Positions 2,131 to 59,784 of a DNA stretch of 64,000 nucleotides are shown here, one piece after another. Within the stretch, counting starts at the first letter, position 1. Each line of letters begins with the position of its first letter. The DNA is from a virus. The notes below the pieces were generated by a model, which saw only the letters and a program-made list of their open reading frames with translations, did not search any database and was not told the DNA's origin. Both the position numbers and the translations under genes were made by a program. Where the stretch lies: the IMG/VR virus record IMGVR_UViG_3300048926_000477; one strand, 5' to 3'.

Positions 2131-2179
2131 AACCCGCACCTAGACTCCGGCGCGCTATGCGACGACTGGGAGGTGAGCG

Positions 2180-5100
2180 ATGAGCGAAGGCGTTGAGTCC
2201 GAAGCCGTAATGCGGCTCCGCTTCATCGAAGAACTCGCCAAGTGGACGCGCGAGATCAACGAGATCCAGGAAGCGACCGGCGACTGGGGTGGAGAGCTCC
2301 GCAAGACCGAGAAGATCCTCGACTCCACCAAGTCCTCGCTCGAGGGGCTCGGCAAGGCCGCCGGCGAGACGAAGCGCGCACTGAAGGACGGGCCGTCCGC
2401 TTCCTCCAAGCAGTGGGACGACCTGGCAGAGCGAGTTGCCGCGGCCACCCAGGCCTACCGTGCCTTCCGCCAGGAGGTCGCCGTCGGCAATCAGGCCGAC
2501 ATGGGCCTCGATGACTGGATCACCACCAACGGCGGCGTCAGCCGTGCGGACCTCGAGAAGTTCCGCCGCGGCAACGCCGGCGGGCTTGTCACCGACGACA
2601 CCGCAGAACTGCGTGAGCAAGAACGCCTCATGCAGAAGCGCATCAACGACGAGATCGCGCTCACACGCGAGATTCAGCGTCGCGCCGAGGCGTCGAAGCA
2701 GGCTCGAATCGCCGAGACCAGCGGGCGCGGCTACGCCAATGCCTCCGTCCTCAGCGACGCCGGCATCAGCGCCGACCGCCAGGCTGGACTCGACTTCTCC
2801 CGCCAGCTGCAGGCGCGGCTGCGCGAGGAAGAGGAAGCCACTCGCCGCGCGCAGCAGGCGCAGCAGGACTACATCAACACGCTCCCCCGCCTGCGGTACG
2901 CGCTCTATGACGTTGCCTCCTCGGCCACGTTCACCGGCGTCGCGCTCACCGGGCTCTCTGTCGCAAGCGCGGCCGCCGCGATCTCCATGGATCGTCAGTT
3001 CGCCGATGTGGTGCGCACCTCGGGCACCTACATCGACCAGACCGGCCGGTCGACGGAGAACCTGCGCGGCCAGTTCAACGAGCTCTTCTCGACACTTCCC
3101 GCCTCCTGGTCGGAGCTCACCGAGATTGGCACTCTGGCCGGACAGCTGGATATCGCGTCGGCCGACATGGCTGAGTTCACGCGGCTGGTCACGATGTTCA
3201 CGGCCACCTCGAACGTCGGCGTCGAGGACTCTGCCACCGCGTTCGGGCGGCTGTCGCAGCTGCTCGGTGTCTCCTCGGACCAGTACGAGAACCTCGGCTC
3301 GTCGATCCTCGCTGTCGGCACGAGCAGCGTCGCGACGGAGTCGCAGATCGTCTCCACGTCCAAGGAGATCGCGTCGATGGGCGCGACCGCCGGCTTCTCC
3401 GCGGCAGACGTGTTCGGCCTCTCCGCAGCCCTCGCCTCCCTCGGCACGCAGCCCGAGCTTTCGCGCGGTGTCGTCACCCGCACCTTCACCAACATCTCCA
3501 CGGCGATCTCTGAGGGCGGTCAGCGCCTCGAGGACTTCGGCGCTCTCGCCGGCATGAGTGGACGCGAGTTCGCGCAGGCGTGGGGCAAGGATGCCGCCGG
3601 AGCCTTCACCTCTCTCATGGAGGGCCTCGGACGCCTGCAGCAGTCGGACGCCACCGCCGTCCTCCGCGAGCTGGGCATCGAGGCCAGCCGCGACGTTCCC
3701 ACCCTCCTCCGCCTCGCCCAGAACAGCGAGGTCCTCGCTCGTTCGATCGAGGTGGCCAACAAGGGCTTCGAGGACGGCACGGAGCTCCAGGACCAGTACA
3801 ACGTCATCGCGAGCACGGTCGCCGAGAAGCTCAGCGTGCTCGTCAACAATTTCCAGCTGCTCGTGGGCACCGCTGCGCAGGCCACCGGTGGACTCGGGTT
3901 CCTCGTCGACGCGCTCATCGCTGTCACCCGCGGCCTCACATCCATCATCGACAACCCGGTCGCCAGCACCCTCGCCGGCATCGGCATCGCCGTCACCGCG
4001 ATCCTCGGCGTCATGGCGCTGCTCGTCGGCGCGCTCGGTCGCGGCGCTGCCAGCTGGCTCGCCATCCGCACCGCCATGGCAGAGTACGCCGCGGCCACCG
4101 GCACCACCACGCTCTCGATCTCCGGGCTCACCGGCGCGCTCGTCGGACAGGAAGTCGCCGCCGGCCGGGCCGCGGTGGCCAGCCGGATCCTCTCGATCGC
4201 CCTGCGCAGTCTCTCCGTCATCGGCATCGCCACGGCCGCGATCCCGCTCGCCGAGTGGATGCGCAGCCTCGCGATCGCCAGCCGCGACGCCTCCGTCGAC
4301 ACGCAGAATCTCACCACCTCGCTCTCTGGCCTCAGCGGCACCGAAGCGAAGGACTCCATCGACGAGATCAACCGCGCCATCGAGCAGCTTGGCCGCTCCG
4401 CGAACATGGGCAGCGGCGCTTCGCTCATCCCGGTTGCCGGCACCTGGCTCTCCCTCGCCGAAGGCGTCGAGCAGGGCGTCACCAAGGCTGAGACGGAGCT
4501 CGACGCCGGTCTTGCCCGCCTGTCGATGAAGACGACCAACTGGTTCGCCAACGCCGGGAACTTCGGCCTGGGCGTCGTCAACGACGCGAACGGCCTGGCG
4601 CCTTGGGCGTCGAGCGTCGACCAGTCCATCGGCGAAGTGCAGAAGGTCGTCGACGCGTACGTCCAGGCCTGGAACAGCGCCGACTCCGCCACCGCGCAGC
4701 AGAAGATCCTCGACGACTACGAGCGCCTCAAGCAGGCATCGATGGACGCCGCCGTTGCTCTCGGCACCTCCGCCGAAGAGGCCGCGTCGGCATGGGACTA
4801 CAACTGGGGCGCGTTCGCAGCCGCGACCGAAGGCGGCGTCAGCGCCCTGGAGCTCGTCGGCGAGCAGGCCGAAGCCACGGCAGAGCAGGTCTCCTCCACG
4901 ATCTCTTCGTTCACGGACGTTGCCAACGCCACCATCGGCGCCGAGAATGCGATCTGGGCCCTCGGCCAGTCGCTCGGCGAGAACGGCGCCCAGTGGAGCG
5001 AGTTCTCTGAGGGTGGCCGGGCGAACATGACCGCCCTCATGGACGTGGTCAACGCCATCGCTGCCCAGACCCCCGGCGACGCGTCGGCCATCGCGAGCAA

Positions 5101-8936: not shown

Positions 8937-11359
8937 CGATGACCCGGCCCATCTCCAACCTCCCCGACGAAGCGCAGGCCTGGCGTCGCGCGATCGAAGA
9001 GGACATCGACGCTGCACTGCGCAACGCCCGCCTCGCGAGCTCCTCGGCGAAGGCCGGCCGAAGCGCCGCCGCCGGTGCCGCCCGTGGACTCGTGGCCGCA
9101 GGACTCAGCGCGGCCGAGGCGAACGCCGCGATCGCCAACGCAGCGCGCATGCCGGCGGCGCCGGCAGACTCCACTGCCAGCTCGAGCACCTACTTCGACG
9201 AGTTCGGCCGTCCGCGCGCCACGGTGTACAGCTCGTGCAGCCCGGTCACTCTCGACACTCGAGGCCGAGACATCGACGTGGAGTATTACGAGCTGTTCGG
9301 CCGCCCCGACATCGAAGGAGAGGCCTGGCGCAAGCTCTCTGAGACCTTCCTCACCCCGCCGGAGATGAGCTTCAACCCGCTCCCGGCGGGTGACAACTGG
9401 GCCTTCAAGATGCGCGGCGTCTCCACGAGCGGGACCCCCGGCGAGTTCGGAGCAGTCATCCCGCTCCTGCTCGCCAAGGACGAGACCCCGCCACCCAAGC
9501 CCGCCGCGCCGACGCCAACCTCCCGCCTCGGTCAGATCACGCTCGGCTGGTCGGGCACGACCGCCGACGGCAACCCGCAGCCGCCGGACTTCTCGCACGC
9601 GGATGTCTACATGGCAACCACGAGCACCGGCGCCGGTGCGGTCGTCGGCCGCATGACCGGATACGACGGCGACACCTTCGTCGCGCCCGAGCAGCCCTAC
9701 GGTCAGGAGCGCTGGTTCTGGCTCGTCGCCGTCGACTACGCCGGCAACCGTTCGGTGCCGTCCGACAAGCAGACCGCCACCGCGCAGTCCGTCGTCGAGG
9801 ACGACATCGACAGCGCGATCATCGACGCCATCACGGAGTCGGTCTCGTCGAACATCGGTGGCACGGCGACATGGAGCACCGCCGCTCCTACCGCTGCGGA
9901 CGGAGTGGGCAAGGCGTCGGGCGCCATGTGGTGGCGTCGTGACGGCAACAACGACGTGATCGGCGTCTGGGAGTGGACCGGGGTTGAGTGGAGCCCACGC
10001 GCGCTCTCGAACGAGGTGATCGCGAGCCTCGACGCCGGCAAGATCAATGCAGGATTCATCGACGTGGCCCGCCTGCAGGCCAACACCATCACGGCGAGCA
10101 AGCTCCTGGTCAGCAACTTCCAGAACCTCGTCGAGGACCCCGGCATGGTGCGAGCGATCGGCGCCGCATGGACCGACGGGAACGGCCTGGCTTCGATCTA
10201 CAGCGACCCAGACGTGGACCGCCTTCTGCGCATCCTGGGTGTTGCAGGCACTGGCGTCACCGTGCGCAACTCGAACCTCTTCACGGTCAAGCCTGGCGAG
10301 ACCTACCTGGTCACCGCCCGCACCTACAACGGCGCATCCGCGGGCTCCGCCGGGTTCGGCATCATGTGGTACGACGCCAGCAACACCTACATCTCAGCCA
10401 GTCTCGTCTCGGCTCCTGCTGGCGGGGGATGGCGAGACCTTTCGGGCCGCGTCGACGCCCCCGCGAGAGCCGTCACCGGCGTCTACTGCCTGTCGACATC
10501 AGCGGCTTTCGCCGGCGGAAACGTCCACCTCTCCAAGCCCGGAGTCTTCCGAGCTGTCGACTCGGAGCTCATCGTCGACGGCGCCATCACAGCGCGCTCC
10601 ATCGCGACCGACGCTGTCACGGCGGCCAAGATCGAGGCCGGCGCCGTCACAGCCGTCAAGGTCGCTGCCAACGCGATCTCGGCCGACAAGATCCAGTCGA
10701 ACGCGGTGACCACCGACAAGATCAACGCCAACGCGGTGACGGCGACGGAGATCGCGGCCGCTGCGATCACGTCGAAGCACACGATCACCGGCGCTCTCGT
10801 GCGCACGGCGGCATCCGGCGCTCGCACCGAGATGAACAGCAGCGGCCTCCAGGTCATCAACTCCTCCGGCAACCCACTCGTTCGCCTCGGGTACGGCATC
10901 CCGACTGGCCTGCAGGTTGCTCAGCCCGATACGGGCTCCTTGGTGGCGCTGGCGCCGTTCGTCTTCGGCATGCAGAACGCCACGAGCAACACCGCCTTCA
11001 ACCTCACCTGGCCCGGATCCGACAACGTGTGGGGAGCCACGACACTCGTGACTCCCGGCCTGACGGTCACCTCGCCGACCGGCAAGTTCATGGTGATCCT
11101 GACGGTGAAGGCGGCCGAGAACTCTCGTCAGAACTACGCCGTCGCGATGGGTATGGAGTTCATGGTCGGTACCGGCATCGCCGGCACCGTCGGAAACGCC
11201 TTTGCCCAAGGCGAGTACCCCTCGCCCCACTTCGGCATCGTCCAGCTCACCCCGAACGCCAACTACACGGTGCGTCTCGGATTCACGCCGAAGCGCTTCT
11301 TTGGTGGCACGGCCCCAGCGACCGTTGCTGGATATTCCGTTGCCATCTGGCCCGTTTAG
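8933..11359 (+). CDS. tail fibre / minor tail protein with 8-residue beta-helix-type repeats
   Basis: Start ATG 8933 overlaps the upstream stop (ATGA; MTMTRP...); 808 aa; repeats of the form AVT-AAK-IEAG, AVT-AVK-VAAN and AIS-ADK-IQSN around nt 10594-10790. Confidence 0.6.
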   Translation: MTMTRPISNLPDEAQAWRRAIEEDIDAALRNARLASSSAKAGRSAAAGAARGLVAAGLSAAEANAAIANAARMPAAPADSTASSSTYFDEFGRPRATVYSSCSPVTLDTRGRDIDVEYYELFGRPDIEGEAWRKLSETFLTPPEMSFNPLPAGDNWAFKMRGVSTSGTPGEFGAVIPLLLAKDETPPPKPAAPTPTSRLGQITLGWSGTTADGNPQPPDFSHADVYMATTSTGAGAVVGRMTGYDGDTFVAPEQPYGQERWFWLVAVDYAGNRSVPSDKQTATAQSVVEDDIDSAIIDAITESVSSNIGGTATWSTAAPTAADGVGKASGAMWWRRDGNNDVIGVWEWTGVEWSPRALSNEVIASLDAGKINAGFIDVARLQANTITASKLLVSNFQNLVEDPGMVRAIGAAWTDGNGLASIYSDPDVDRLLRILGVAGTGVTVRNSNLFTVKPGETYLVTARTYNGASAGSAGFGIMWYDASNTYISASLVSAPAGGGWRDLSGRVDAPARAVTGVYCLSTSAAFAGGNVHLSKPGVFRAVDSELIVDGAITARSIATDAVTAAKIEAGAVTAVKVAANAISADKIQSNAVTTDKINANAVTATEIAAAAITSKHTITGALVRTAASGARTEMNSSGLQVINSSGNPLVRLGYGIPTGLQVAQPDTGSLVALAPFVFGMQNATSNTAFNLTWPGSDNVWGATTLVTPGLTVTSPTGKFMVILTVKAAENSRQNYAVAMGMEFMVGTGIAGTVGNAFAQGEYPSPHFGIVQLTPNANYTVRLGFTPKRFFGGTAPATVAGYSVAIWPV

Positions 11360-11393
11360 TCGCCCGAAATTGGGCTTAGACTCCGGCGGCACA

Positions 11394-11987
11394 ATGGCAA
11401 CCACTTCCCGCGGGATTCCGCTCGCTGACGGCGACACGATCGTTAACCCGATCCAGACGCCGCTCAATGCGATGGCGAATGCCCTGGACACTGCCCTCGG
11501 CAACCTCGTCACCGAGCTGGGCCCCGCGATCGGGTGGCGCCGCGCTGGCACGAACGCCGATCGACTCGCTCTCGCCGCACCGGCGCTGGCCCGTGGAGTG
11601 CAGTTCTACTGCACCGACACCGACCGCGAGTGGGAATACAGCGGCTCCGCCTGGTACTGCACGCGGATGCCGTTCACAGACCTGAGCTACGCAACTGGCT
11701 GGAGCACCGTCGCCAATGCCCCGGGGGCCTACGTCCGCATCCGAGGCGGCATCGTCACCATCGGAGGCCGAGTCAGCGGCACCGGCACCGCTGGGACCAC
11801 CATCGCGACCCTCCCCGCCGAAGCACGCCCCGCAAAGGAGCTGACCTTCCAGGTCTACGTCGACTCAGTCAGCGCATGGGGCGCCATGCGCATCGGCACC
11901 GATGGCGCCATCGCCTTCTACAGCAAGACCACCCCGCTCTCCGATGTGCGACTCGACGGAGCCCCCTCCTGGTCGGTGTCCTCGTGA
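11394..11987 (+). CDS. minor tail protein (possible receptor-binding component)
   Basis: 198 aa from ATG 11394 (MATTSRGIPLADGD); the TAGACTCCGGCGGC motif lies 11 nt upstream; the ORF-track extension from 11202 overlaps the fibre gene and is rejected. Confidence 0.45.
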   Translation: MATTSRGIPLADGDTIVNPIQTPLNAMANALDTALGNLVTELGPAIGWRRAGTNADRLALAAPALARGVQFYCTDTDREWEYSGSAWYCTRMPFTDLSYATGWSTVANAPGAYVRIRGGIVTIGGRVSGTGTAGTTIATLPAEARPAKELTFQVYVDSVSAWGAMRIGTDGAIAFYSKTTPLSDVRLDGAPSWSVSS

Positions 11988-13893: not shown

Positions 13894-13933
13894 CGGACGC
13901 ACACCACCCGATTTAGCTAGCAAAGGAGAGAGC

Positions 13934-15184: not shown

Positions 15185-15235
15185 GCGACAGGCTTAGACT
15201 TCGCCGCCACAACGACCTTGAAGGAGGCTCCCCCG

Positions 15236-15526
15236 ATGGCAGAGCAGTCCACCCAGAGCGCGCACCCCTGGCGCGCCTCCGTCCGAACGGCAGCCGCCGT
15301 CGGCATCGCGGCTCTTGCCGCTCTCGCCGCGATCGGCCCCGAGCTGGTGAACTTCGTCGCCGAGCAGTTCCCGGGCTCGCCCGCCGCGGGGATCGTCGCC
15401 GCCGGCTCCGGCTTCATCGTCGGCCTGTCGCTGCTCGTGAACCGCATCGCGCTCCTGGCGCCGGTGGCGAGCTTCCTGCAGAGCATCGGGCTCGGCCCGA
15501 CGCCCAAGACCGGAGGTGACGACTGA
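15236..15526 (+). CDS. small membrane protein (2 predicted TM segments)
   Basis: ATG 15236 preceded by SD aaggagg; hydrophobic segments AAAVGIAALAALAAIG and IVAAGSGFIVGLSLLV; an alternative TTG start at 15218 is also possible. Confidence 0.45.
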   Translation: MAEQSTQSAHPWRASVRTAAAVGIAALAALAAIGPELVNFVAEQFPGSPAAGIVAAGSGFIVGLSLLVNRIALLAPVASFLQSIGLGPTPKTGGDD

Positions 15527-15585
15527 CGCCCCTCTCAGGATCAGCTAGCTAAACGCCGGCCCTGAGAGGAGCGTGGTCCGCATCT

Positions 15586-21661: not shown

Positions 21662-21737
21662 TGGCTCCCCGGGCAGGACTCGAACCTGCGACCAACGGCT
21701 TAACAGGCCGCCGCTCTGCCAACTGAGCTACCGGGGA
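21662..21737 (-). tRNA. tRNA-Asn (anticodon GTT), CCA encoded
   Basis: Manual fold: acceptor tccccgg/ccgggga, D arm gctc-agttggca-gagc, anticodon stem gcggc/gccgt with loop ctGTTaa, T arm gcagg-ttcgagt-cctgc, discriminator g, CCA; 76 nt. Confidence 0.7.
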
Positions 21738-23596: not shown

Positions 23597-23652
23597 TTCT
23601 GTTCCTCTCTCGAACTGAAGTGTAGGTGGCGATTAGCTAGATAAGGCGGGGT

Positions 23653-24761: not shown

Positions 24762-24867
24762 CTTTTCTCCTTCGTTTCGTGATCTTCGCCCTGCGGCGAT
24801 GACTCAACGATAGCCGTATTTAGCTAGCTAATTCAAGATGCGAGCACCGCTTAATTTGCGGCAGTTT

Positions 24868-25158
24868 CTATGCAGTGTGCCCCAGCTTCTCGAGCCAGTG
24901 GCGCTGCTTCCCCTTGTCCCAGGCGATGCCACCCTTGACTCCCCAGGCGGGCTTGTCGACGAGCGCCGAGCGCCGGCAGATATCCAGCAAAGGGCAGCCG
25001 GAGCACAGGGCCTTCGCCTCCTCTTCACCCGGCGGCTTGTCGTAGTCAACGTACAGGTCGAAGCGCTCGACACACTTCGGCTGCGGCTGCTTAGGATCCT
25101 TCTCGGCGAGGGCAAGCGCGACGCGAAGCTCGAAGGTGTCGCCGCGGTTGGTCCTCAC
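24868..25158 (-). CDS. whiB: WhiB-family transcriptional regulator
   Basis: 96 aa; Cys pattern C-x(n)-CSGCPLLDIC followed by a GVKGG turn and a basic tail, typical of WhiB. Confidence 0.65.
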   Translation of the reverse strand: MRTNRGDTFELRVALALAEKDPKQPQPKCVERFDLYVDYDKPPGEEEAKALCSGCPLLDICRRSALVDKPAWGVKGGIAWDKGKQRHWLEKLGHTA

Positions 25159-25391: not shown

Positions 25392-25445
25392 GGTGCCCTC
25401 TCTCGGCTGGAGCCGCGCAGTCTAGCTGCGAGGGCGCCAAGGGCG

Positions 25446-39074: not shown

Positions 39075-39087
39075 TTTATCTAGATGA
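39075..39087. repeat. palindromic operator-like site tttaTCTAGAtga, downstream of the promoter -10
   Basis: Member of the TTAGCTAGCTAA / TTATCTAGATAA family (at least 16 copies in the window). Confidence 0.5.
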
Positions 39088-39099
39088 TCCGACGATCCC

Positions 39100-39129
39100 A
39101 CCCTAGGGGCGGTGTGTGCTGTGAGTCAA
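39100..39129 (-). promoter_or_regulatory. candidate early leftward sigma-A-type promoter (-35 TTGACT, 18-nt spacer, -10 TAGGGT)
   Basis: On the - strand: TTGACT (+39129..39124), an 18-nt spacer, then TAGGGT (+39105..39100); flanked by two palindromic TTATCTAGATAA-type sites. Confidence 0.45.
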
Positions 39130-39132
39130 CAC

Positions 39133-39146
39133 TTTATCTAGATAAT
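39133..39146. repeat. palindromic operator-like site TTTATCTAGATAAT abutting the promoter -35
   Basis: Perfect palindrome TTATCTAGATAA; same family as above. Confidence 0.5.
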
Positions 39147-40395: not shown

Positions 40396-40459
40396 GCTGT
40401 GCTCCGGTTTAGCTAGATACGGGCGGGTTAGGCGGTGCGGGCCGCGGTGGCCGTGGCGC

Positions 40460-40984: not shown

Positions 40985-41015
40985 GGTGGCTCCCAGGTGT
41001 GTTAGCTAGATACGG

Positions 41016-41447
41016 TCAGGCGGTGTAGTCGGCATAGCCGTTGGATGCGTACCACGCGTAACACTCGGCGAGGGTGAGGAAGTGGACAGCCCTGACAAGG
41101 CCGACGCCCGTGTGGTACCACTCGATCCGATAGTCACACCCGTCGGTGTACGTGTTCGCTTCGTACTCGGCGGACTCTGCGTCCTCTGGGATGTAGAGCC
41201 ACACATCGCCGATGGCGCGATACTCCCCGGGCTCACCCTCCCCCATGTACGGGCCGTACTCACCGCCCGTCGTGCGGGCGTCGGCTTCGGCCTGCGTGAT
41301 GGGCTCAGGGGTGGCGCGTCCGGCCTGCGTGGCGTGCATGAATGCCACGGCGTCGGCGTAGCCGCCCCGCGTGGTGAATCCCACGATCGCACCCGCGACG
41401 CGGGCATACACAGTGAACAGGGGGCGGGTGTCCAGCGCTTCGTTCAT
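41016..41447 (-). CDS. hypothetical protein; first gene of the leftward unit at the divergent promoter region
   Basis: 143 aa; ATG 41447 has no SD but has TAGACT 6 nt upstream on the - strand, suggesting a leaderless transcript. Confidence 0.45.
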   Translation of the reverse strand: MNEALDTRPLFTVYARVAGAIVGFTTRGGYADAVAFMHATQAGRATPEPITQAEADARTTGGEYGPYMGEGEPGEYRAIGDVWLYIPEDAESAEYEANTYTDGCDYRIEWYHTGVGLVRAVHFLTLAECYAWYASNGYADYTA

Positions 41448-41692
41448 GGAACAAGTCTACCGTGAGTGCTTAGGTTTAGCTAGATAAATATGTAGTGTGG
41501 GGGAAGTGAGAACCATACTCAACACACGACGGGGAGGGTGGGAGCGGGGCAAGCGACACGAGCGCGCGGATTGGCGACCGCGGGAAACCACTCAGATTTT
41601 CAGAGCGCGGGCGAAGGGCGCGGAGGGTGGGGCGCCCCCACGCGCAGATTTTTCTTCTCCCCCAAATCGGCCATTCCGCTACCATCGGCCCC

Positions 41693-42019
41693 ATGACGCT
41701 CCACTCCCCCGCCCGGCCCCGCATGCGCTTCAGCCCGATCTTCTGGATCGCCCTGGCCGGCCTCATTGCGATCGTCGCCGTGGGCGTCTACTACAACCTC
41801 CCCGCCGTCGCAGACGCCAAGGCCACCGCCGCATGCGAGGACGCCGTCAAGCCGGCCCTCACCGCCCCCGCGTCAGCCTCCTTCCACAGCTGGAAGGTCG
41901 ACGGCGACACCGTCCGAGGCTCCGTCGACAGCCAGAACGGCTTCGGCGCCCTGCTCACGAGCTCCTTCGAGTGCCGCGTCGTCCCCAACGGCACCGCCGC
42001 GCTCATCAGCATCAGCTGA
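41693..42019 (+). CDS. membrane-anchored protein (one TM segment, extracytoplasmic domain)
   Basis: ATG 41693 (MTLHSPARPRMRFSPIFWIALAGLIAIVAVGVYY) preferred over 41627. Confidence 0.45.
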   Translation: MTLHSPARPRMRFSPIFWIALAGLIAIVAVGVYYNLPAVADAKATAACEDAVKPALTAPASASFHSWKVDGDTVRGSVDSQNGFGALLTSSFECRVVPNGTAALISIS

Positions 42020-42238
42020 GCCCCCAGGGCGCCCCGGAACCGCCCATAGACTCCGCGTCAGCCCCCGGTCGAGACGAGTCCTCTCTCCTTGTCCACCGGG
42101 GGCCTTCGCGTTGCCCTAGTTCCACGCCGCCACCACGCGCAAACCCCTCGAGAAGAGCCCACCTCCCACCGAAACGGCCGGTCGCCGCATATTTTTAGCC
42201 AGCAAATACACGCTCAAGCCCCCTTGTTATCTAGATAA

Positions 42239-45778: not shown

Positions 45779-45812
45779 CCCATAGCCCCCCCGAGAGAGG
45801 AATTAGCTAGAT

Positions 45813-46088
45813 ATGTCCAACTTCAACAGTGACATCGTTCTCGGCGACGAGTACGAGGACACCCAGACCGAGTTTCGTGGCATCGCCACGGCGATCTACT
45901 TCTACCAGTACGGCTGTGAGCGGGTGAACCTCGAGGCCTTCGACAAGAAGACCAAGGACATCCGCTCGCTCACCTTCGACGCGCCCCGCCTGCGACACGT
46001 CAAGACCGGCAGGGTCGCGACCGTGACGCGTACAGGTGGTCCCGGAAACGGACGCGAGGCGCGCCGTGACGAGGGGGCTCGTCGATGA
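45813..46088 (+). CDS. hypothetical protein
   Basis: The palindrome ttagctagat directly abuts the ATG; SD gagagagg. Confidence 0.4.
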   Translation: MSNFNSDIVLGDEYEDTQTEFRGIATAIYFYQYGCERVNLEAFDKKTKDIRSLTFDAPRLRHVKTGRVATVTRTGGPGNGREARRDEGARR

Positions 46089-48247: not shown

Positions 48248-48249
48248 CC

Positions 48250-49074: not shown

Positions 49075-49286
49075 GCCCTCACCGCTGGCAGGTCGTCGTC
49101 AAGCCCGGCCCCTTGGGCATCGGGTGGATCGTCAGGCTCGAGAAGAGTCTGCTGCTGTACGGCCCGCGCCTCCGCTCGGCCCTCGGGCCCCGGTTCGCCT
49201 GGTGGTGGCGCCCCACGCACGCCGCCGCAGTCACGAAGGGTTTCGCGCTCGTCACCGAACTCGAGCGACCGAAGGGAATTAGCTAG
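49071..49286 (+). CDS. hypothetical protein
   Basis: 71 aa. Confidence 0.35.
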   Translation: MSPHRWQVVVKPGPLGIGWIVRLEKSLLLYGPRLRSALGPRFAWWWRPTHAAAVTKGFALVTELERPKGIS

Positions 49287-49520
49287 ATGACCGCCTACCT
49301 CGACCGCACCCGCAGCTGGGGCGAGCGCAACGGCGGCGTATCCGACCCCCGCCTCATCCGCCGCCTCGACAACATCCCCGCCAACACCGAAGAGGAGATC
49401 GCCGCCGTGAAGCGCATGATCGCCACCCACTTCCCCGGCGCCGACCCCGCGTCGACGACGACCCGCCACCAGCTGGAGGCCATGCTCCTTCCCGCAGACG
49501 ACCTGGCGCTGGCAGCATGA
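49287..49520 (+). CDS. hypothetical protein
   Basis: The palindrome ttagctag overlaps the ATG. Confidence 0.4.
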   Translation: MTAYLDRTRSWGERNGGVSDPRLIRRLDNIPANTEEEIAAVKRMIATHFPGADPASTTTRHQLEAMLLPADDLALAA

Positions 49521-51375: not shown

Positions 51376-51974
51376 CCGCCCTCGTCGTCGGCCTCGGTGG
51401 CGCGCTGCGCTCCGGCAAGGACGCCATCGCAGATCACCTCGTCGCTCGCCACGGCTTCGTGAAGAAGGGCATGAGTGACCCGCTGCTCGAGCATGCCCTG
51501 ATCCTCGATCCGTACATCCCCGTGAACGCACACCCGGCTCGGGACATGCAAGGCGCCCTCAACGGCACCTTCATCCGGCTGTCGCACCTCGTCGAGGCTG
51601 TCGGCTACGTCGAAGCCAAGACCAACCCGGAGGTGCGCCGATTCATGCAGCAGGACGGCACCGAGGGTGGGCGTGACTTCCACGACGAGAACGTCTGGGT
51701 CAACCGCGCTGCGCGCGCGATCGACGACCACCTCTACGCCGACCAGCGCGTCGTGCTGACCGGCGTCCGCTTCCCGAATGAGCTCGCCATGGTGCGCCAG
51801 TTCGCCGGGAGCACCTGGTGGGTCTCACGGCCGGGCCTAGACTCCGCCTCTTCGGCCGCGGCGCACGCCAGCGAGAACGGCGTCGATGCGGCCATGTTCG
51901 ACCACATCATCACGAACGCCGGCTCGCTGGAGGATCTCTACGCGGCCGTCGACAGACTCATGGAGACCCTGTGA
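51372..51974 (+). CDS. deoxynucleoside monophosphate kinase-like P-loop kinase
   Basis: Walker A GLGGALRSGKD; sits among nucleotide-metabolism genes. Confidence 0.55.
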   Translation: MTALVVGLGGALRSGKDAIADHLVARHGFVKKGMSDPLLEHALILDPYIPVNAHPARDMQGALNGTFIRLSHLVEAVGYVEAKTNPEVRRFMQQDGTEGGRDFHDENVWVNRAARAIDDHLYADQRVVLTGVRFPNELAMVRQFAGSTWWVSRPGLDSASSAAAHASENGVDAAMFDHIITNAGSLEDLYAAVDRLMETL

Positions 51975-52195: not shown

Positions 52196-52479
52196 CCCGC
52201 CTGCACCTCTACGTCACCACCACCTGCCCCCGCTGTCGCGCCGTCGAGCGCTGGCTCAACGATCGAGACATTCCCTTCACCGAGACCAACATGGAGGCGT
52301 TGCCGCCGGCCGAGGCCGACGCGATCCGCTCCAGTCTCGCTGCTGATGGATACACGCAGGCACCCGCCGTCTACTTCACCGACGACGAGTCGGGCGTCGC
52401 GCTCTCCTTCACCGGTTTCGATGTGACCCAGCTCGAGACTATCCATGCCCATTTAGCTAGCAGATTGAACAACTCGTGA
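52192..52479 (+). CDS. nrdH: NrdH-like glutaredoxin
   Basis: LHLYVTTTCPRCRAVERWL is the CxxC thioredoxin-fold active site; 95 aa. Confidence 0.55.
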   Translation: MTRLHLYVTTTCPRCRAVERWLNDRDIPFTETNMEALPPAEADAIRSSLAADGYTQAPAVYFTDDESGVALSFTGFDVTQLETIHAHLASRLNNS

Positions 52480-53250: not shown

Positions 53251-54675
53251 ATGGAAACCGTTACGGATAAGGCCAGCCGTGCGCTGCCCACCTCATCCAT
53301 CAGTACCGACAAGGAATACTTCGCCACCCGCTACAAGCAGGGTGGTCGCACCGTTTACTCCCTGGCCCAGAGCCCAACGCAGGTCACCGGCCTGGTCAAG
53401 CGTCCTGACCCTAGCGCGTCGAACCCGGGAAACCGCCGAATCCGCCCGGACCACGCGAGCGCCTTCGCGCGCTACCTCATCGAGAACGACAATTGGGTCA
53501 TCCCGGGCATCATCCTGCGCGCGCCGAGCATCTTCAGCTTCGAGGAGGACGCCGACGCGGTTGGCTTCCAGACGGGCGTGATGCGCTACGCCGAGCGCAA
53601 CCAGGGCGATATCCAGATACTCGACGGCCAGCACCGAATCCTCGGCTTCCACATGGCTCACGACATGCTGGACGCTCGCATGGACAAGGCGCGGTCGGCC
53701 CGAGCCACCGCGCGCCGCGTGCAGGACGACAACGCAATCAAGGCCGCCGAGGCCGAGATCCGCCAGCTTGACGCCGTGCGCGAGCGCCTCGCGACCGAGC
53801 GCTTCACGGTCGAGATCCACGTAACCGACGACCTGCAGGCGTACCGCCAGATGTTCTTCGATATCGCGGAGAACGCGCTCGGCATCACCGCCTCCGTCAA
53901 GGCGCGCTTCGATGCGCGGAAGGTCGTCAACCGCGCGCTGCCGACGGTGCTCGAGCAATCCCTCCTTGAGGGGCGAGTGGACCTCGAAGCCGACCGCATC
54001 CCGCCGACGAGCACCTACTACCTCGCCGCGCGACACGTCATGGAGACGCTGCGGGTGCTGACCGTCGGCTACGACGGCCGTGTGAGCAAGCGGATGGACA
54101 AGGAGATGAGCGAGGTGGAGATCGCACGCCGCGGCGTGGAGTTCTTCGACGGCCTCGTCGCTGCCTTCCCCGTTCTCACCACGCTCAAGGCCGGTCAGAT
54201 CACGCCCGAGCAGATCCGCAAGAGCTCGCTCATGGGCTCGCCGGCCTTCATCCGCGTGCTCGCCGGTGTCTTCTACGAGCTGACCACGAACCACTCCTAC
54301 ACGCCGAGCATGGTGTTCGAGTTCTTCGGCCGCCTGGCGAAGCACACCAACGCTTCTGCGCACGCCAACTCGATCTGGCGCAAGTACGCTGCTCCCGAGG
54401 CGTTCCACGAGGGCGCCTGGGGCCCGAACCAGCGCCGCCAGGACGCCAAGGGCCTCGTCATGACGATCGCCGACTGGGCGATCGACAAGGAGCCCTTCGT
54501 CGACGCCGAGGCCGAGCCGGCGCCGGTGATCGAAGAGGAAGAGATCGACGAGGACGCACTGATCGACTTCGCCATGGGCCACAACACGAAGCCCCTGGAC
54601 GTGGAGCTGCGCAACGAGGCCGAGGATATCGCCGCTGCGTCGAAAGCCCGCGTGAAGGCCAAGACCACGTCGTAG
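53251..54675 (+). CDS. DGQHR-domain (DndB-like, ParB/Srx-fold) protein
   Basis: 474 aa; exact motif QILDGQHRILG with an upstream FQTGVMRYAERNQGD block, as in DndB/DGQHR proteins; SD ggag; followed by a strong terminator. Confidence 0.65.
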   Translation: METVTDKASRALPTSSISTDKEYFATRYKQGGRTVYSLAQSPTQVTGLVKRPDPSASNPGNRRIRPDHASAFARYLIENDNWVIPGIILRAPSIFSFEEDADAVGFQTGVMRYAERNQGDIQILDGQHRILGFHMAHDMLDARMDKARSARATARRVQDDNAIKAAEAEIRQLDAVRERLATERFTVEIHVTDDLQAYRQMFFDIAENALGITASVKARFDARKVVNRALPTVLEQSLLEGRVDLEADRIPPTSTYYLAARHVMETLRVLTVGYDGRVSKRMDKEMSEVEIARRGVEFFDGLVAAFPVLTTLKAGQITPEQIRKSSLMGSPAFIRVLAGVFYELTTNHSYTPSMVFEFFGRLAKHTNASAHANSIWRKYAAPEAFHEGAWGPNQRRQDAKGLVMTIADWAIDKEPFVDAEAEPAPVIEEEEIDEDALIDFAMGHNTKPLDVELRNEAEDIAAASKARVKAKTTS

Positions 54676-54721
54676 ACTGCGCTCCACCCTGCCAGGCCTC
54701 CTTCCCGAGGCCCGATTGACA

Positions 54722-54750
54722 CCCCTCCGGGATTCACACCCCCGGAGGGG
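54722..54750 (+). terminator. intrinsic terminator hairpin cccctccggg-N9-cccggagggg
   Basis: Perfect 10-bp stem then a T-rich tgtcgttgtt; lies between the DGQHR gene and TerS. Confidence 0.6.
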
Positions 54751-54779
54751 TGTCGTTGTTCGACCTAGACTCCGCCGCC

Positions 54780-55292
54780 ATGTACGGGGAGATCAAGCTC
54801 GGCAAGAACAGGTCGATCGACGACGCGCTGCTCGAGGCCGCCGTCATGGACCTGTCCGCCGAGGAGACCTCCGCTCGGCTCAACGGCGTGCTCTCCCCCG
54901 CGCGCGTGATGGTCCGATGGAAGGAGCTCCTGCGCTCGAACACCTGGCTCGAGGCAGCAGAGCGTGAGCAGGCCCTCCTTCGCGTCCTCCAGAAGAACCT
55001 CGTCGATCTCCAGAACGCCGAGCTCATGGGGGCGGAGGGCTTCAAGATCCAGCTGAGCTACATCCGCCAGCTCTTCGAGCGCCTCGACAAGCGCCAGGCC
55101 GCCACCGAGGAGCAGCTGAACACCTACAACGAGAACGTCGGCCGCCAGCTCGGACGCGTCGTCGACATGACGCTCAAGTACATGCAGGGCGCCCTCCGCG
55201 AAGTCATCGAACCTGCCAAGTGGGACGAGCTCGTGCAAGAAGCGCTCGTCATGGCCCAGGTCGAGATCGCGAAGAAGCAGGTCGAGGCCTGA
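54780..55292 (+). CDS. terminase small subunit (positional call)
   Basis: ATG 54780 immediately follows CTAGACTCCGCCGCC; 170 aa, helical and charged; lies directly upstream of TerL. Confidence 0.45.
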   Translation: MYGEIKLGKNRSIDDALLEAAVMDLSAEETSARLNGVLSPARVMVRWKELLRSNTWLEAAEREQALLRVLQKNLVDLQNAELMGAEGFKIQLSYIRQLFERLDKRQAATEEQLNTYNENVGRQLGRVVDMTLKYMQGALREVIEPAKWDELVQEALVMAQVEIAKKQVEA

Positions 55293-55293
55293 C

Positions 55294-56991
55294 GTGATGC
55301 TCGACTCCCGCATTTTCGATGCCGCGATGGACGAGCTCGCGCAGAAGTCCAAGAAGGCGCTGTACCAGCGCGACTTCGAGGCCTGGCTCGCCGACGTGCT
55401 GCACGAGCGCATGTACCGGAAGATGGCCGAGGTCAGCCATGACGTGCTTTTCGGTAAGCACCCGCGCACCCTCGTCAAGTCGGCCAACGGTACCGGCAAG
55501 ACTCACTCGGCCGCTCGCTGGGTCATGTGGTGGGTGACCGCCTTCCCGAAGGAGGAGTCGCTCGCGATCCTCACAGCCCCGACTCTAAAGCAGGTGCGTC
55601 TCGGCGTGCTCGCATACCTCAAGGAGTCGTACGGCTACGTCAAGACTCACGCCCAGTCGCAGGGCAAGCAGATGCCCTGGCCAGGCTGGATCAGTGAGCA
55701 GGACGAGTGGCGCTACTCGACCCTCGGAGGTAACCAGACACTCGCCGTCGCGCGCGTGCCCGGCGCATCCGACGCGATCTCGACCTTCCAGGGTCTCCGC
55801 AAGACCGGTGGTCGCAACTTCATCTCGCTCGATGAGGCCGGCGGTGTCTCGCGTGACATCTTCACCGCGATCGACGCGCTCATGACCTCGGGCGACGCAC
55901 GCATGGGCGGGATCGGGAACCCCGACCGCCGCGGCACCGCGTTTTACGACGCCTTCACCGATCCGCGTCTGGCGCGCGAGTATCAGCTGCACACGATCTC
56001 CGCCTACGACACCCCGAACCTCACCGGCGAGGTCGTCTACAAGGACGACCCCGAGAAGGAGCGGATGCTCCGAAACGGTCTCATCTCCGCGCGCTGGGTG
56101 TTCGAGCGCGAGCGCATGTGGAAGACCGGCGGCGAGGTCGTCTACGACGAGGCGGTCGAAGCAGAGCGCAACCTCACCGGGCGCCCCGACGGCCGCTTCA
56201 AGGCCAAGGTCGGCGGGCAGTTCCCCGACGAGGACGACCACACATTCTTCCCCGAGGAGCCGATCACGGCCGCCCGTCACCGCGAGCTCACCGACGAGCA
56301 GATTGCGACCTCGCCGATCGTCCTCGGGGTCGACCTCGCAACCATGGGTACTGACGAGACCGTCGTGATGATGAACAAGGGCGGCCGATGCCGCGTGTTC
56401 GACGGCCGCGTGAAGTACGACGACGGCGGCGAGATCCGCGAGACCAGCGGAACCTGGGCCAAGGAGGACGAGCTCTCCAACGCCCGCCGCGTGCACGCCG
56501 TGGCCACCTACCTCGGCGCGACAGAGGTGCGCCTGGACGCCGGCGGCATCGGCGCCGGCATCGCGACGAACCTCATGCGACTCGACGAGTTCGCCGGCAA
56601 GCAGTACATGGTCATCCGCGTCGACGGCTCCAAGGCGTCAGCCGACAGCGCGCGCTGGGCGAACGCGCGCTCCCAGAACCACGACCAGCTCCGCGAGCTC
56701 CTCGCCGAGGGCGTCCTCGACATCGACTACGACGACGACGTGCTGAAGGAGCAGCTGCTCGCCGTCACCTACGACCTGAACAAGCGCGGCGCCGTGCAGA
56801 TCACCCCGAAGAAGGACATGCGCACCGAGATGCACGGCTCGCCTGACCGTCTCGACGCCCTCATCTACGCCGTCATCAACACCGACGCGCTCTCCGACCC
56901 ATTGAACCAGCTCGAGCGCGGCGATCGCGTGTTCGTCGATCCGTGGGAGCTACTGGCGATGTCTCGCGCGGGCGCCGGCATGCCTTTGTGA
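55294..56991 (+). CDS. terminase large subunit
   Basis: 565 aa; ATPase motif VKSANGTGKTHSAARW; Walker B-type FISLDEAGG; C-terminal nuclease-like acidic residues. Confidence 0.8.
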   Translation: MMLDSRIFDAAMDELAQKSKKALYQRDFEAWLADVLHERMYRKMAEVSHDVLFGKHPRTLVKSANGTGKTHSAARWVMWWVTAFPKEESLAILTAPTLKQVRLGVLAYLKESYGYVKTHAQSQGKQMPWPGWISEQDEWRYSTLGGNQTLAVARVPGASDAISTFQGLRKTGGRNFISLDEAGGVSRDIFTAIDALMTSGDARMGGIGNPDRRGTAFYDAFTDPRLAREYQLHTISAYDTPNLTGEVVYKDDPEKERMLRNGLISARWVFERERMWKTGGEVVYDEAVEAERNLTGRPDGRFKAKVGGQFPDEDDHTFFPEEPITAARHRELTDEQIATSPIVLGVDLATMGTDETVVMMNKGGRCRVFDGRVKYDDGGEIRETSGTWAKEDELSNARRVHAVATYLGATEVRLDAGGIGAGIATNLMRLDEFAGKQYMVIRVDGSKASADSARWANARSQNHDQLRELLAEGVLDIDYDDDVLKEQLLAVTYDLNKRGAVQITPKKDMRTEMHGSPDRLDALIYAVINTDALSDPLNQLERGDRVFVDPWELLAMSRAGAGMPL

Positions 56992-57039
56992 GTGGTTAGC
57001 CCCCGGTTTACCCCCGTTTCAACCCTAGACTCCGCCGCC

Positions 57040-58617
57040 ATGACCAGTTCCGGCTCCATCCTGCTCGAGAGCATGTACAACTCCGCGGCTCTCGCGTTCG
57101 AGCAGGCTGACGCCAGTCAGAAGCCCGCGATCCTCGAGATGATGGACGGGCTGCGCATGATGCTGCAGCGCGAAGACCAGGGTTGGACGCCGTTCTACGG
57201 CGGCACCGACGAAGGATTCCAGCTCGCCATCACCCTGGACCAGCTGAAGGGCTGGGAGAAGGACCTCTCGGAGCTCGCACTCGGCGCCGCGTGGATGCGC
57301 CGCGGCCTCATGCTGCACTGCGGCTACATCTGGAACGGCGGCATCCGCTACTCCCCTCTCAGCGAGGGCGGCTCCCAGGGCATCAAGAACGTCAAGAAGT
57401 TCTTCGACGACGCAGAGAACCAGCAGAACTTCTTCGGCCCCGACGCGCGCCGCCGGCGCCAGTCGCGCCTGTACTACTCCGGCATCGTCCTCTACCTCGG
57501 CAACGAGAAGACGAAGAAGCTCACGCCGATCCCCCTCCACCAGATCACCGACCAGATCCTCGCGCCCGACGGCACTGGCGAGATCTGGGCCTACAAGCGC
57601 GAGTGGTCCGAGCGCAATCTCAAGACCGCGAAGGTGATCGAGAAGAAGGAGTGGATCTTCACGCACCGGGCGATCGGGCACCGCGTGGACAAGATCAAGG
57701 AGGCCGGCGCTGAAGAGACATGGACGCCGGTGTCGCAGACCGAGCGCATCTTCGACATGCACGCCAACCGCCTCGAGGGCATGGCCTACGGCGTCCCCGA
57801 CGCCCTCGCTGCGGCGTCCTGGCACAAGATCGCCAAGAACGCGTTCCTCGACGGCATCACCATGACCCAGGCCCTCGCCTCCTTCGCCTTCCAGGTGACC
57901 AACCGCAGCGCAAAGGGCGGCGAGAACGCGGCGCTCCAGTTCGCGACACCCCAGGGCGCCGGGCAGACGATCGTCGGCGCCAGCGAGCTCCGCTCCGTGA
58001 ACTCCGCCGGCAGCAGCTACGACTTCCAGGGCCTCACGCCCGTCCTGGCGATCATGGCGACATCCCTCGACGTGTCGGTGATCCACCTCTCCGCCTCCCC
58101 CGGCGACGCCGGCTCCAGCTACTCCGCCGCCGAGACCATGGACCTGCCCACGCGGCTCGCCATGGGCACGCGCCGGGACATGCACATCGAGTTCGACCGC
58201 CAGGTGCTCGAGTGGATGGGCCAGAAGGATCCTGAGGTGTTCTTCGCGCCGTTCGAGAGCGGCACCGAGACCTACCGCAACATCCAGGCCCTCATCCTCG
58301 CCGCGCAGGCCGGCGCCTACTCGATCGAGCAGCTGCGCGTCATGATCGACGACCTCCTCGCGCTGCCCAACGGCAAGCCGCCCACGGGCGCACTCGAGTT
58401 CAACAACCAGAAGACCCTGGAGATCCAAGCGCGCATCGCGGCGAAGAACGCGCCGAAGCCTGCCGCCAGCGACGACTCCGACGGCGACAAGTCCTCCGTC
58501 GCCTCCCCGGCACAGGGTCGCGGCAACGGCAGTGGCGGGCAGGACGGCGGCAACGCGTCGAACGACCTGCGTGACAAGGCGGAGCAATTTCTGGTCTCCG
58601 GCGACCTTCGGCCCTAA
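57040..58617 (+). CDS. portal protein
   Basis: ATG 57040 immediately follows CTAGACTCCGCCGCC; 525 aa; position after TerL; acidic C-terminus. Confidence 0.65.
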   Translation: MTSSGSILLESMYNSAALAFEQADASQKPAILEMMDGLRMMLQREDQGWTPFYGGTDEGFQLAITLDQLKGWEKDLSELALGAAWMRRGLMLHCGYIWNGGIRYSPLSEGGSQGIKNVKKFFDDAENQQNFFGPDARRRRQSRLYYSGIVLYLGNEKTKKLTPIPLHQITDQILAPDGTGEIWAYKREWSERNLKTAKVIEKKEWIFTHRAIGHRVDKIKEAGAEETWTPVSQTERIFDMHANRLEGMAYGVPDALAAASWHKIAKNAFLDGITMTQALASFAFQVTNRSAKGGENAALQFATPQGAGQTIVGASELRSVNSAGSSYDFQGLTPVLAIMATSLDVSVIHLSASPGDAGSSYSAAETMDLPTRLAMGTRRDMHIEFDRQVLEWMGQKDPEVFFAPFESGTETYRNIQALILAAQAGAYSIEQLRVMIDDLLALPNGKPPTGALEFNNQKTLEIQARIAAKNAPKPAASDDSDGDKSSVASPAQGRGNGSGGQDGGNASNDLRDKAEQFLVSGDLRP

Positions 58618-58659
58618 ACCCCCCAAGGTCCGAAAATCTCGCCCCTAGACTCCGGCGCC

Positions 58660-59784
58660 ATGCCAACGGACAACTCCACCGCCGGGACCCAGCTGCGCGT
58701 TCGCGAAGCCGGGTACCGCCAGGGCACCCGCGCGGTCGTCCCCGAGGGCAACGGCCAGAAGATCAAGGTGCGCCTCATGGGCTGGGAGCCCGGCACCACG
58801 GTCGTCGAGGGCTCGAGTGCCGACTATCCGGTGGACCGCATCGTCCGCGACTTCCCCGAGTCGTTCCCCGTCGGCACGCGCATGCGCGCCAACCACGACG
58901 GCTTCTGCGAGGCCGGCGGCGACATCCGCCGCGTCATGGCCAAGACCACCTCCGATCCGTGGGAGGAGGAGGACGGGATGTACGCCTGGGCGGTCGCCCG
59001 CGAAGGCGACGCCAGCGAGTTCCTCCGCCAGTTCGCCGATGTCATCGGCACCTCCGTCTCCGTGGCCGCAGAGGTCGAGATGGAAGCAGCCGTCGACAGC
59101 AACGGCAAGCCGATCATCGACGAGAACAACCAGCCCGTCATGAAGCCGCGTCTCAGCGAGCGCGGCGCCCAGATCGTCGAGCGATTCCTCCCCATGAGCG
59201 AGTCGCCGTACAACGCCGTCGACTTCGTCGAGGCACCCGGCGCCGACGGCGCCATCGTCGCTCTCGCCACCGAGAGCGCCAAGGAGCTGGTCGAGAAGAC
59301 CATGCTCCGCGAGGCATCGAGCTTCGCAATCGATCTCGCCGGCAAGCGCGAGAAGACTTCCGCGGCAAACCGGCCCGGAACCACCCAACAGGAGGACCAC
59401 ATGGATCCGAAGGTGATCGAGGCAGCCGTTCGCAGCGTGCTCGCCGAGGCACTCGCGCCCATCAACACCTTCCTCGCGGACGAGGGCGCCCGTCGCCAGG
59501 CCGAGGCGGAAGCCCAGGCCGGTGCGGACGGAGTGAAGGAGGCCCGCGAGGCCGCCGTCACCGCAGTCGAGGCCGTCAAGGCCGCGAAGCTCCCCGAGTC
59601 CGTCGAGGTCGACCTGCTCGCGCAGCTCAAGGAGGGCGCGGACATCAGTAAGGACCTCGCCTTCGCGCAGAAGGTCCTGGAGGCCAAGACCTCCACGAGC
59701 GAGTCGACCGACTCGTTCATCACCCACGAGTCGGCCGCCGGCGACGGCGAGTCCTTCTCCCTCGGTCTCGGAGGTAGCCGCTAA
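58660..59784 (+). CDS. capsid maturation protease / scaffolding-like protein (helical Ala/Glu-rich C-terminal half)
   Basis: ATG 58660 immediately follows CTAGACTCCGGCGCC; C-terminal EAEAQAGADGVKEAREAAVTAVEAVKAAK is coiled-coil; lies between portal and capsid genes. Confidence 0.45.
   Translation: MPTDNSTAGTQLRVREAGYRQGTRAVVPEGNGQKIKVRLMGWEPGTTVVEGSSADYPVDRIVRDFPESFPVGTRMRANHDGFCEAGGDIRRVMAKTTSDPWEEEDGMYAWAVAREGDASEFLRQFADVIGTSVSVAAEVEMEAAVDSNGKPIIDENNQPVMKPRLSERGAQIVERFLPMSESPYNAVDFVEAPGADGAIVALATESAKELVEKTMLREASSFAIDLAGKREKTSAANRPGTTQQEDHMDPKVIEAAVRSVLAEALAPINTFLADEGARRQAEAEAQAGADGVKEAREAAVTAVEAVKAAKLPESVEVDLLAQLKEGADISKDLAFAQKVLEAKTSTSESTDSFITHESAAGDGESFSLGLGGSR

Follow-up and report, generated by a model that had tools for sequence, protein, structure and literature searches.

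Conserved TAGACT elements before packaging and head genes of a probable Microbacterium phage as likely -10 regions of a promoter family with predicted leaderless transcripts

Leaderless promoters of Actinobacteria reportedly consist of a TANNNT -10 hexamer, usually without a -35 element. Among Thermus phages the late promoters of P23-45 are grouped with those of YS40 and Lalka27a. The transcripts of Lalka27a, and earlier those of YS40, were found to be mostly leaderless, with +1 on the first base (A or G) of the start codon, and the late promoters of Lalka27a possess a distinct TAGGGT -10 hexamer with a conserved upstream C and no normal -35 (bioRxiv 10.64898/2026.04.20.719267). The present analysis concerns a repeated element, CTAGACTCCGCCGCC, with TAGACT as its informative core, in a 64,000-nucleotide stretch of viral DNA (IMG/VR record IMGVR_UViG_3300048926_000477; hereafter the window), where it stands directly before the start codons of the TerS, portal, and protease genes. 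The Thermus phage late promoters are its closest precedent in the distinct -10, the upstream C, and the leaderless transcripts, the starts being here predicted from sequence; they differ from it in host phylum and in sequence, while the window displays a conserved GC-only 7-8-mer after the hexamer and an A(C/G)CCC box at a 22-nt spacer. With actinobacterial leaderless promoters the element shares TANNNT at 6-9 nt before ATG or GTG, the lack of a Shine-Dalgarno (SD) sequence, and a GC-rich host; however, in those host promoters the middle of the hexamer and the discriminator are variable, whereas here a 12-17-mer is kept in 4-8 copies per genome across phages of 40-49% portal identity.

An 18-bp repeat of Microbacterium phages of Clusters EC and EI, TAGaCTATaGGTgTaAgC, occurs 12 times per genome in short intergenic gaps, its function being unknown (PMC7302621, PMC9224216). 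It resembles the present element in starting with TAGACT, in being asymmetric, co-oriented, and intergenic, and in belonging to phages of the same host genus; however, its 12 downstream bases are unrelated, the Cluster EC copies lie 21-30 bp upstream of the start, before the ribosome-binding site, and are never adjacent to it, and the EC phages encode their own sigma factor. Judged by its sequence, the element does not belong to this repeat family, only the first 6 bases being common to both. Another group, the start-associated sequences (SAS), contains an SD-like purine core. In Cluster K mycobacteriophages and Cluster EF Microbacterium phages the SAS/ESAS, GGGATAGGAGCCC and GGGAAAGGACCCC, occupy the position of the ribosome-binding site (PMC7302621). 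The first-pass annotation of the window, made from the letters alone, had considered the element functionally analogous to the mycobacteriophage sequences, and a conserved short motif before a subset of start codons is indeed common to both; the analogy does not hold further, since the element is CTAGACT with a GC-only tract, has no GGAG-type core, and is not bound to starts. In the literature, by a search not covering all journals, no description of the motif or of leaderless portal and protease genes in actinobacteriophages was found.

The window has a GC content of 65-68%. The + strand genes occupy ~41.7 kb-64 kb together with 1-15.5 kb and include small genes, nucleotide metabolism, a DndB-like gene, terS, terL, portal, protease, and capsid, followed by tail and lysis genes, and the - strand genes at 15.8-41.4 kb include PrimPol, AAA_24, RtcB, an SNF2 helicase, and a WhiB-like protein. 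The portal was identified by homology, the TerL, head maturation protease (here the protease), and tape measure by PHROGs (the minor-tail match being weak), the dNMP kinase gene by PF21448, and TerS by position only. The portal is at most 37% identical to those of cultured phages. As megablast of positions 54000-60000 gave no DNA-level match to cultured phages, related phages (designated below by their loci, L002 and others) were reached via protein comparison, and the scan of genome contigs gave one locus only. Because homologues of PrimPol and the portal sit in Microbacterium isolates and metagenome-assembled genomes, some of them as integrated prophages, the host is very likely Microbacterium. 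One related prophage, L052, is found in Microbacterium sp. T32 (GCA_001619615.1).

Exact copies of CTAGACTCCGCCGCC are located at 54765-54779 and 57025-57039, the ATG of TerS and portal following directly, and CTAGACTCCGGCGCC, with one mismatch, is located at 58645-58659 directly before the protease ATG; the three copies previously described as full were thus placed correctly, the third one being imperfect. At a threshold of two mismatches CTAGACTCCGCCGCC has 6 copies, all on the + strand, compared with 0.50 expected, a number reached in 0 of 100 shuffles, and TAGACTSCGSSSSSRTG occurs 3 times compared with 0.00 expected. At three mismatches 12 copies compared with 6 expected are not significant, so the analysis rests on the two-mismatch level and the context of the hexamer. 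The looser copies were confirmed at 2140, 11376, 15194, 42047, 51837 (within the dNMP kinase gene), and 54673, with the hexamer 10 nt before ATG 2157 of an upstream open reading frame (uORF) and 11 nt before the minor-tail ATG 11394. The variants CTAGTTCC at 42116 and 53170, also proposed as members, are not retained, lacking T at position 6 of the hexamer as well as the upstream box described below; the 53170 copy was rejected also because it is not kept in the 81%-identical relative L048.

The total of 11 copies of TAGACT in the window is unremarkable (~4 expected by a second-order Markov model, ~10 by base composition). Their placement is strongly biased, since 10 of the 11 are intergenic while intergenic DNA makes up 11.7% of the window (binomial p ~5e-9), and all 11 match the direction of local genes, including two on the - strand. 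The earlier statement that all copies are on the + strand is correct for CTAGACTCCGCCGCC at up to two mismatches and incorrect for TAGACT, one of whose two - strand copies stands, as had been noticed, 6 nt before the leaderless-looking ATG 41447. The contrast in SD sequences that had been observed is also real: 64 of 91 called genes have an SD-like sequence, GGAG-type SDs being usual, and the motif-adjacent genes have none.

The element was then sought in related phages, as the first-pass annotation had proposed for the 15-mer, and is kept before TerS, portal, and protease. In L005, L007, L008, and L010, with a portal identity of 43-49% and intergenic DNA unalignable to the window, TAGACT(C/G)CGC precedes the ATG of these three genes, mostly by 7-8 nt and, for the portal genes of L008 and L010, by 10-11 nt. 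The counts of TAGACT on the gene strand and on the other strand are 7/0, 8/0, 6/0, and 4/0, respectively. The TerS genes of L005, L007, L008, L039, and L048 all show TAGACT, 8 nt, and ATG; TAGACT lies 7-11 nt upstream of the portal ATG in L005, L007, L008, L010, L040, L041, and L048, and L002, a 92%-identical relative, has the portal site unchanged. In IMG/VR a second subgroup (~40% portal identity) carries an identical TAGACTCCGCCGCC in front of the ATG or GTG starts of these three genes. In distant relatives (27-62% portal identity, 54-66% GC), including the cultured Pseudanabaena phage Pan2, Microbacterium phage BarnCat, and Clavibacter phage CMP1, the sequence differs and TANNNT is still found 6-11 nt before an SD-less ATG, in the forms TAAACT, TAGAAT, TATACT, TATCGT, TATCCT, TAGGGT, and TAGCGT.

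This was evaluated by ranking all 64 patterns XYNNNZ, without prior choice, upstream of the portal, protease, and capsid genes. TANNNT was the first of 64 before the portal (22 of 23 lineages, runner-up 7) and before the protease (19 of 23, runner-up 9), while before the capsid it was outside the top-ranked patterns, with none in the per-gene scan, and the SD-derived GANNNG was the top one (14/17). T, A, and T kept around a variable middle, at a short fixed gap from an SD-less start, are the textbook -10 signature for a leaderless mRNA, and the previous comparison of TAGACT with the actinobacterial TANNNT is well supported by these orthologous sites.

On the other hand, the element could be a binding site of a phage regulator, either a stoperator-like repressor site or a late-regulator site, in which the -10 likeness would be incidental and the orientation would be set by the asymmetry of the site. 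The Cluster A stoperators are likewise asymmetric, co-oriented, and intergenic, as are the dispersed copies described here; temperate relatives exist, and a 15-17-mer is kept beyond the needs of a -10. However, the distant relatives retain only the T, A, and T together with the spacing to ATG, which is what RNA polymerase recognizes, the spacing of 7-8 nt to SD-less starts would be left without explanation, and a separate palindrome, TTAGCTAGMTAA, situated at divergent control regions, is the better candidate for a repressor site. For these reasons a regulator site is regarded as improbable.

Loci chosen independently of the motif contain 22 leaderless-type copies, in which hexamer and start are separated by 8 nt (13 copies), 7 nt (5), or 10-11 nt (4), so that 18 of the 22 have 7-8 nt, while 8 further copies in unbiased loci (3 in the window, 5 in L007/L008) lie 23-45 nt upstream of SD-led starts. 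Within L007, L008, and the presumed tape-measure site of L049, TAGACT(C/G)CG precedes some ATGs that lack an SD by 7-8 nt and others that have one by 29-46 nt, with six leadered copies in these three loci besides those of the window. The spacing covaries with the start codon. Three or four copies, among them 42047, 54673, and 51838, have no start codon after them. Thus the framing of the element as start-associated has to be abandoned: it is not tied to start codons, the copies at 15195 and 25424 (-) being 23-35 nt before SD-led starts and that at 2141 preceding a uORF and an SD-led gene. Because the same core sits before SD-less starts and, further off, before SD-led ones, it is better read as a -10 box with a discriminator than as a translational element.

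A translation enhancer or ribosome recruiter acting in the RNA, which would serve SD-less genes on polycistronic transcripts, might be suspected because the element abuts the ATGs of three successive genes that have no SD and are not separated by terminators. It is considered very improbable, given the copies 23-45 nt upstream of genes with their own SD and those without a following start, the lack of a purine-rich or anti-SD-complementary core, and the coincidence of the conserved positions with a DNA -10 hexamer. The same absence of terminators between terL, portal, and protease would suit an RNA-processing site, where a host or phage endoribonuclease would cut a late polycistron before each AUG to release leaderless mRNAs, and the phage does encode the RNA ligase RtcB (27375-28595, -), so that RNA-end chemistry is in play. 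Nevertheless, no nuclease candidate was seen among the window proteins scanned by Pfam, and TANNNT at -10-like spacing across lineages with differing flanks favours initiation of transcription; processing is considered very unlikely. In Rfam the window gave a tRNA only, the element and the hairpins that follow two of its copies matching no RNA family there.

The anatomy of the element was derived from 36 aligned sites of the window and its high-GC relatives. The consensus has C at -2 (29/36), a pyrimidine at -1, and TAGACT, then C or G, C (36/36), G (34/36), C (31/36), and a tract of G and C only, with a purine eight or nine bases past the hexamer. The discriminators have no A or T, and nearly all leaderless-type copies have C immediately before the start. 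Transcription starts prefer a pyrimidine at -1 and a purine at +1; the C before the start codon fits this preference and would place the transcription start on the purine of the start codon. Minimum-energy folding leaves the predicted leaderless mRNAs unpaired over their first 8-20 nt.

A second peak of information, which was absent from the first-pass annotation, lies upstream: A at -28 in 22/36 sites, and C over the range of -26 to -24 in 31, 25, and 25 of 36. In the window the box A[CG]CCC stands exactly 22 nt upstream of TAGACT in 6/11 copies, all six on the + strand, the chance being ~0.004 per site (own estimate from base composition), and the A(C/G)CCC box recurs in relatives. In the second subgroup another box, yGAAssGAT, takes the same upstream position; an ECF-type reading of its GAAC/GAAG was dropped, the spacing to CGT being too long. 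The -35 hexamer is optional in Actinobacteria, and a consensus scan at spacers of 16-19 nt revealed none, the profile being flat at -23 to -18 with a peak at -28 to -23. The window does contain a canonical promoter, TTGACT-N18-TAGGGT at 39076-39145 (-), upstream of the - strand gene 38157-39023 and with operator palindromes on both sides, which is probably a repressor-controlled early promoter; its presence implies that the host-type -10 is of the TAGnnT kind and that the phage also has normal -35 promoters. Both - strand TAGACT copies are without the upstream box and have operator-like palindromes nearby, which suggests at least two promoter classes common to one -10.

It is considered likely that the element is the -10 and the GC-only spacer of a phage promoter family, and with somewhat less confidence that transcription begins exactly on the AUG. 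According to this reading the RNA polymerase of a Microbacterium-type host with its primary sigma factor would probably read TAGACT as -10, the G/C-only 7-8 nt (consensus CCGCCGCC) would be the discriminator, and the step from C to A or G at its end would set +1 on the ATG or GTG. Then terS(-terL), portal, and protease(-scaffold-capsid) would be made as leaderless mRNAs with a 5'-terminal AUG translated without SD. The same -10 and discriminator lying further upstream would give short SD leaders (15195, 25424-) or leaders of 2-3 nt (11377), and the 2141 copy a short uORF with an SD-led tape-measure start. Of the earlier proposal of late promoters giving leaderless or near-leaderless mRNAs, the promoter part is strongly supported by the comparison of lineages, and the position of the start is a prediction; the timing as "late" is suggested by the kind of genes served, TAGACT also serving the leaderless gene beside an immunity-type region (41447, -) and the WhiB operon (25424, -). 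Since the -35 is absent, the upstream box is lineage-specific, and the relatives are prophages that need silent head genes, the promoters are expected to be conditional, requiring an activator or a remodelled sigma factor, so that head and tail genes would stay silent in the lysogen.

No phage sigma factor or RNA polymerase was identified among ~58 window proteins scanned by Pfam and 10 by PHROGs, only the WhiB-like protein and weak helix-turn-helix (HTH) matches. Phage WhiB-like (Wbl) proteins were described to bind region 4 of sigma-A in the AsiA-like manner (PMC13013590). The Wbl gene of the window (24868-25158, PF02467) lies behind a 78-aa gene in the operon at 25424 (-), is conserved with its neighbours, and stands behind its own TAGACT/TATACT promoter, the arrangement recurring with TAGACT in L051 (5335) and TATACT in L050. 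It might accordingly be imagined that the cluster of HTH, small protein, and WhiB remodels sigma region 4 and retargets the polymerase to the A(C/G)CCC-N22-TAGACT promoters of head, tail, and lysis genes, though this is rather doubtful. The T4 middle promoters (AsiA/MotA) are similar in that a non-canonical upstream box, paired with a -10, replaces the -35, Wbl being present here; they differ in that the box is at -30 in T4 and at about -40 from the predicted start here, and no MotA homologue was found in the window. The regulatory cluster was observed at 24868-26009 (-) of the window, L050 6138-6703, L051 4935-5932, and L052 5367-6330, in the order HTH-like protein, TAGACT/TATACT promoter with SD leader, small protein of 71-78 aa (the L050 call being shorter), and WhiB-like protein; the HTH-like protein ends in HREFAP and has weak HTH_62, HTH_23, and Sigma70_r4_2 matches.

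Several points weigh against the promoter reading or its details. At 8 nt the discriminator is near the upper limit of usual lengths, and a start at the G six nt past the hexamer, with a 3-nt leader, is an alternative. The 17-mer TAGACTCCGCCGCCATG is identical in phages of only ~40-49% portal identity; because such constraint exceeds the needs of -10 recognition, the discriminator may be recognized by some further factor as well. Three successive promoters without terminators between them are unusual for a head operon, and the 42047 and 54673 copies run straight into strong hairpins instead of genes. Finally, a scan with an E. coli-type consensus gave no two-hexamer promoters at the element and no excess of terminators, and it lends no positive support, though this would be expected if -35 is absent.

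The coordinates of individual sites are collected in Table 1.

Table 1. Predicted promoter sites, other copies of the element, and palindrome sites in the window.
Feature	Coordinates	Strand	Description
TerS promoter (predicted)	54738..54782	+	Box ACCCCC 54738-54743, 22-nt spacer, TAGACT 54766-54771
TerS site, downstream part	54772-54779	+	GC-only discriminator CCGCCGCC, then ATG 54780 = predicted +1
Portal promoter (predicted)	56998..57042	+	Box AGCCCC 56998-57003, TAGACT 57026-57031, CCGCCGCC, ATG 57040
Protease promoter (predicted)	58618..58662	+	Box ACCCCC 58618-58623, TAGACT 58646-58651, CCGGCGCC, ATG 58660
Promoter (predicted) upstream of tape-measure gene	2113..2183	+	Box ACCCCC 2113-2118, TAGACT 2141-2146
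Minor-tail promoter (predicted)	11349..11396	+	Partial box GGCCCG, TAGACT 11377-11382, CCGGCGGC
Leadered promoter (predicted)	15195..15238	+	TAGACT 15195-15200, TCGCCGCC, A, 35-nt leader with SD GAAGGAGG, ATG 15236
Orphan copy	42019..42115	+	Box AGCCCC, 22-nt spacer, TAGACT 42047-42052, then strong hairpin
Orphan copy	54645..54764	+	Box AGCCCG, TAGACT 54673-54678, then 15-bp terminator-like hairpin
Copy inside dNMP kinase gene	51838..51843	+	TAGACTCCGCC; conserved in L048 at 5785
WhiB operon site	25392..25424	-	TAGACT 25419-25424, 23-nt leader with SD GAGAGAGGG, ATG 25391
Leaderless ATG 41447 site	41445..41459	-	TAGACT 41454-41459, 6 nt, ATG; operator-like palindrome over -35 region
Palindrome sites (1)	957-968, 13913-13924, 15541-15552, 23633-23644, 24820-24831, 30834-30845		
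Palindrome sites (2)	35209-35220, 39076-39087, 39134-39145, 40409-40420, 41002-41013, 41476-41487		
Palindrome sites (3)	42227-42238, 45803-45814, 49279-49290, 52453-52464, 61403-61414		

Automatic callers place the start of TerS at TTG 54756 (24 nt upstream; 178 aa, locus L003), by which the promoter element is read as codons. In L005 no in-frame start exists upstream of the ATG that follows TAGACT, and by comparison with the relatives ATG 54780 is the TerS start; therefore leaderless starts in this lineage are prone to mis-annotation. Upstream of the tape-measure gene a uORF of 8 codons opens at ATG 2157 and closes with TGA 2181-2183, which forms an ATGA overlap with the SD-led tape-measure start at ATG 2180, and in L049 a leaderless uORF of 14 codons (2876-2920) has its TGA overlapping the GTG, as GTGA, of a 1363-aa ORF, presumably the tape measure (not annotated). 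Both uORFs start 8-10 nt after TAGACT, which suggests that translation of the downstream long ORF is coupled to that of a leaderless or near-leaderless uORF. The minor-tail site has its predicted +1 at A 11391, giving with ATG 11394 a 3-nt leader without SD, and a positional analogue is present in L051 at 20799. The position of the 15195 copy is conserved in L050 (16868), L051 (16211), and L052 (16670), each with an SD leader. The 51838 copy is possibly an internal promoter for downstream small genes.

The hairpin after the orphan copy at 42047 has -34.1 kcal/mol (z = -5.0), and this copy may be a short transcript or a remnant. The hairpin after the 54673 copy has -45.8 kcal/mol (z = -5.7); the TAG of its hexamer is the stop codon of the DndB-like gene, and TAGACT at the DndB stop is seen also in L048 (8562) and L007 (7647). 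The arrangement of TAGACT right after a stop codon and then a very stable hairpin was observed at 42047-42115 and 54673-54764 of the window, L007 7647-7722, and L016 4425-4460, and at the DndB-terS junction the second TAGACT promoter lies beyond the hairpin. The orphan copies may encode transcripts of ~55-75 nt, or they may be terminators with a vestigial promoter. The DndB-like gene itself (PF14072, DNA-sulfur-modification associated; 53251-54675) is directly upstream of terS in every relative examined (L004, L005, L007, L008, L009, L048), usually with a short opposite-strand gene before it. In L005 (16295-16340) a tandem repeat of the heptamer CTCGGCT (cggctctcggctctcggctctcgg...) comes after an intragenic TAGACT.

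A second repeat family is formed by a 12-bp palindrome, TTAGCTAG(A/C)TAA, of the TTAGCTAGMTAA type mentioned above, with ~19 sites (37 strand-matches compared with 0.31 expected). The sites are mostly intergenic, those at 30834, 35209, and 52453 being within called genes; they cluster at the divergent control regions (39.1 kb, 41-42.2 kb) and are also scattered among structural genes, and those at 45803 and 49279 abut start codons. The palindrome resembles a repressor operator that is distributed in the manner of stoperators. Related palindromes are placed just upstream of TAGACT in L008 (TTAGCTGGCTAA), L014 (TTATCTAGATGA), and L004 (TTTAGCCCGCTAAA).

As regards the remaining gene content, a tRNA-Asn (GTT) gene is located at 21662-21737 (-), just upstream of the PrimPol gene. 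The relatives carry a tyrosine integrase between the capsid/lysis-like block and the head-tail/tail genes (L005 18336-19436, L009 17038-18174, L008 18412 onward), and in the prophage relatives the host junction is at the same place, so that the structural module is split by integration; the window ends with the stop codon of a GDSL-lipase gene, which precedes the integrase position of the relatives. The large terminase of L004 (7215-9950) has 911 aa compared with ~565 and a faint LAGLIDADG match, which suggests that it carries an intein or a homing-endonuclease insertion.

In summary, if the transcription starts map to the AUGs, this lineage expresses its genes for packaging and head assembly as leaderless mRNAs, from promoters that are conserved one by one. 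This would give a rule for annotating starts in these phages and a compact portable cassette of promoter and leaderless start for Microbacterium and perhaps other Actinobacteria. The shared TAGACT start suggests a promoter role for the unexplained Cluster EC repeat as well. With its upstream box and conserved Wbl gene the phage provides a system for testing the redirection of a host sigma factor by Wbl, and, should the sigma-appropriation reading be true, phage Wbl proteins would gain a defined promoter class, and the silence of three strong head promoters in the prophage would be explained. Finally, leaderless expression of portal and protease from separate promoters would go far back in a large lineage of phages whose hosts range from 47 to 70% GC.

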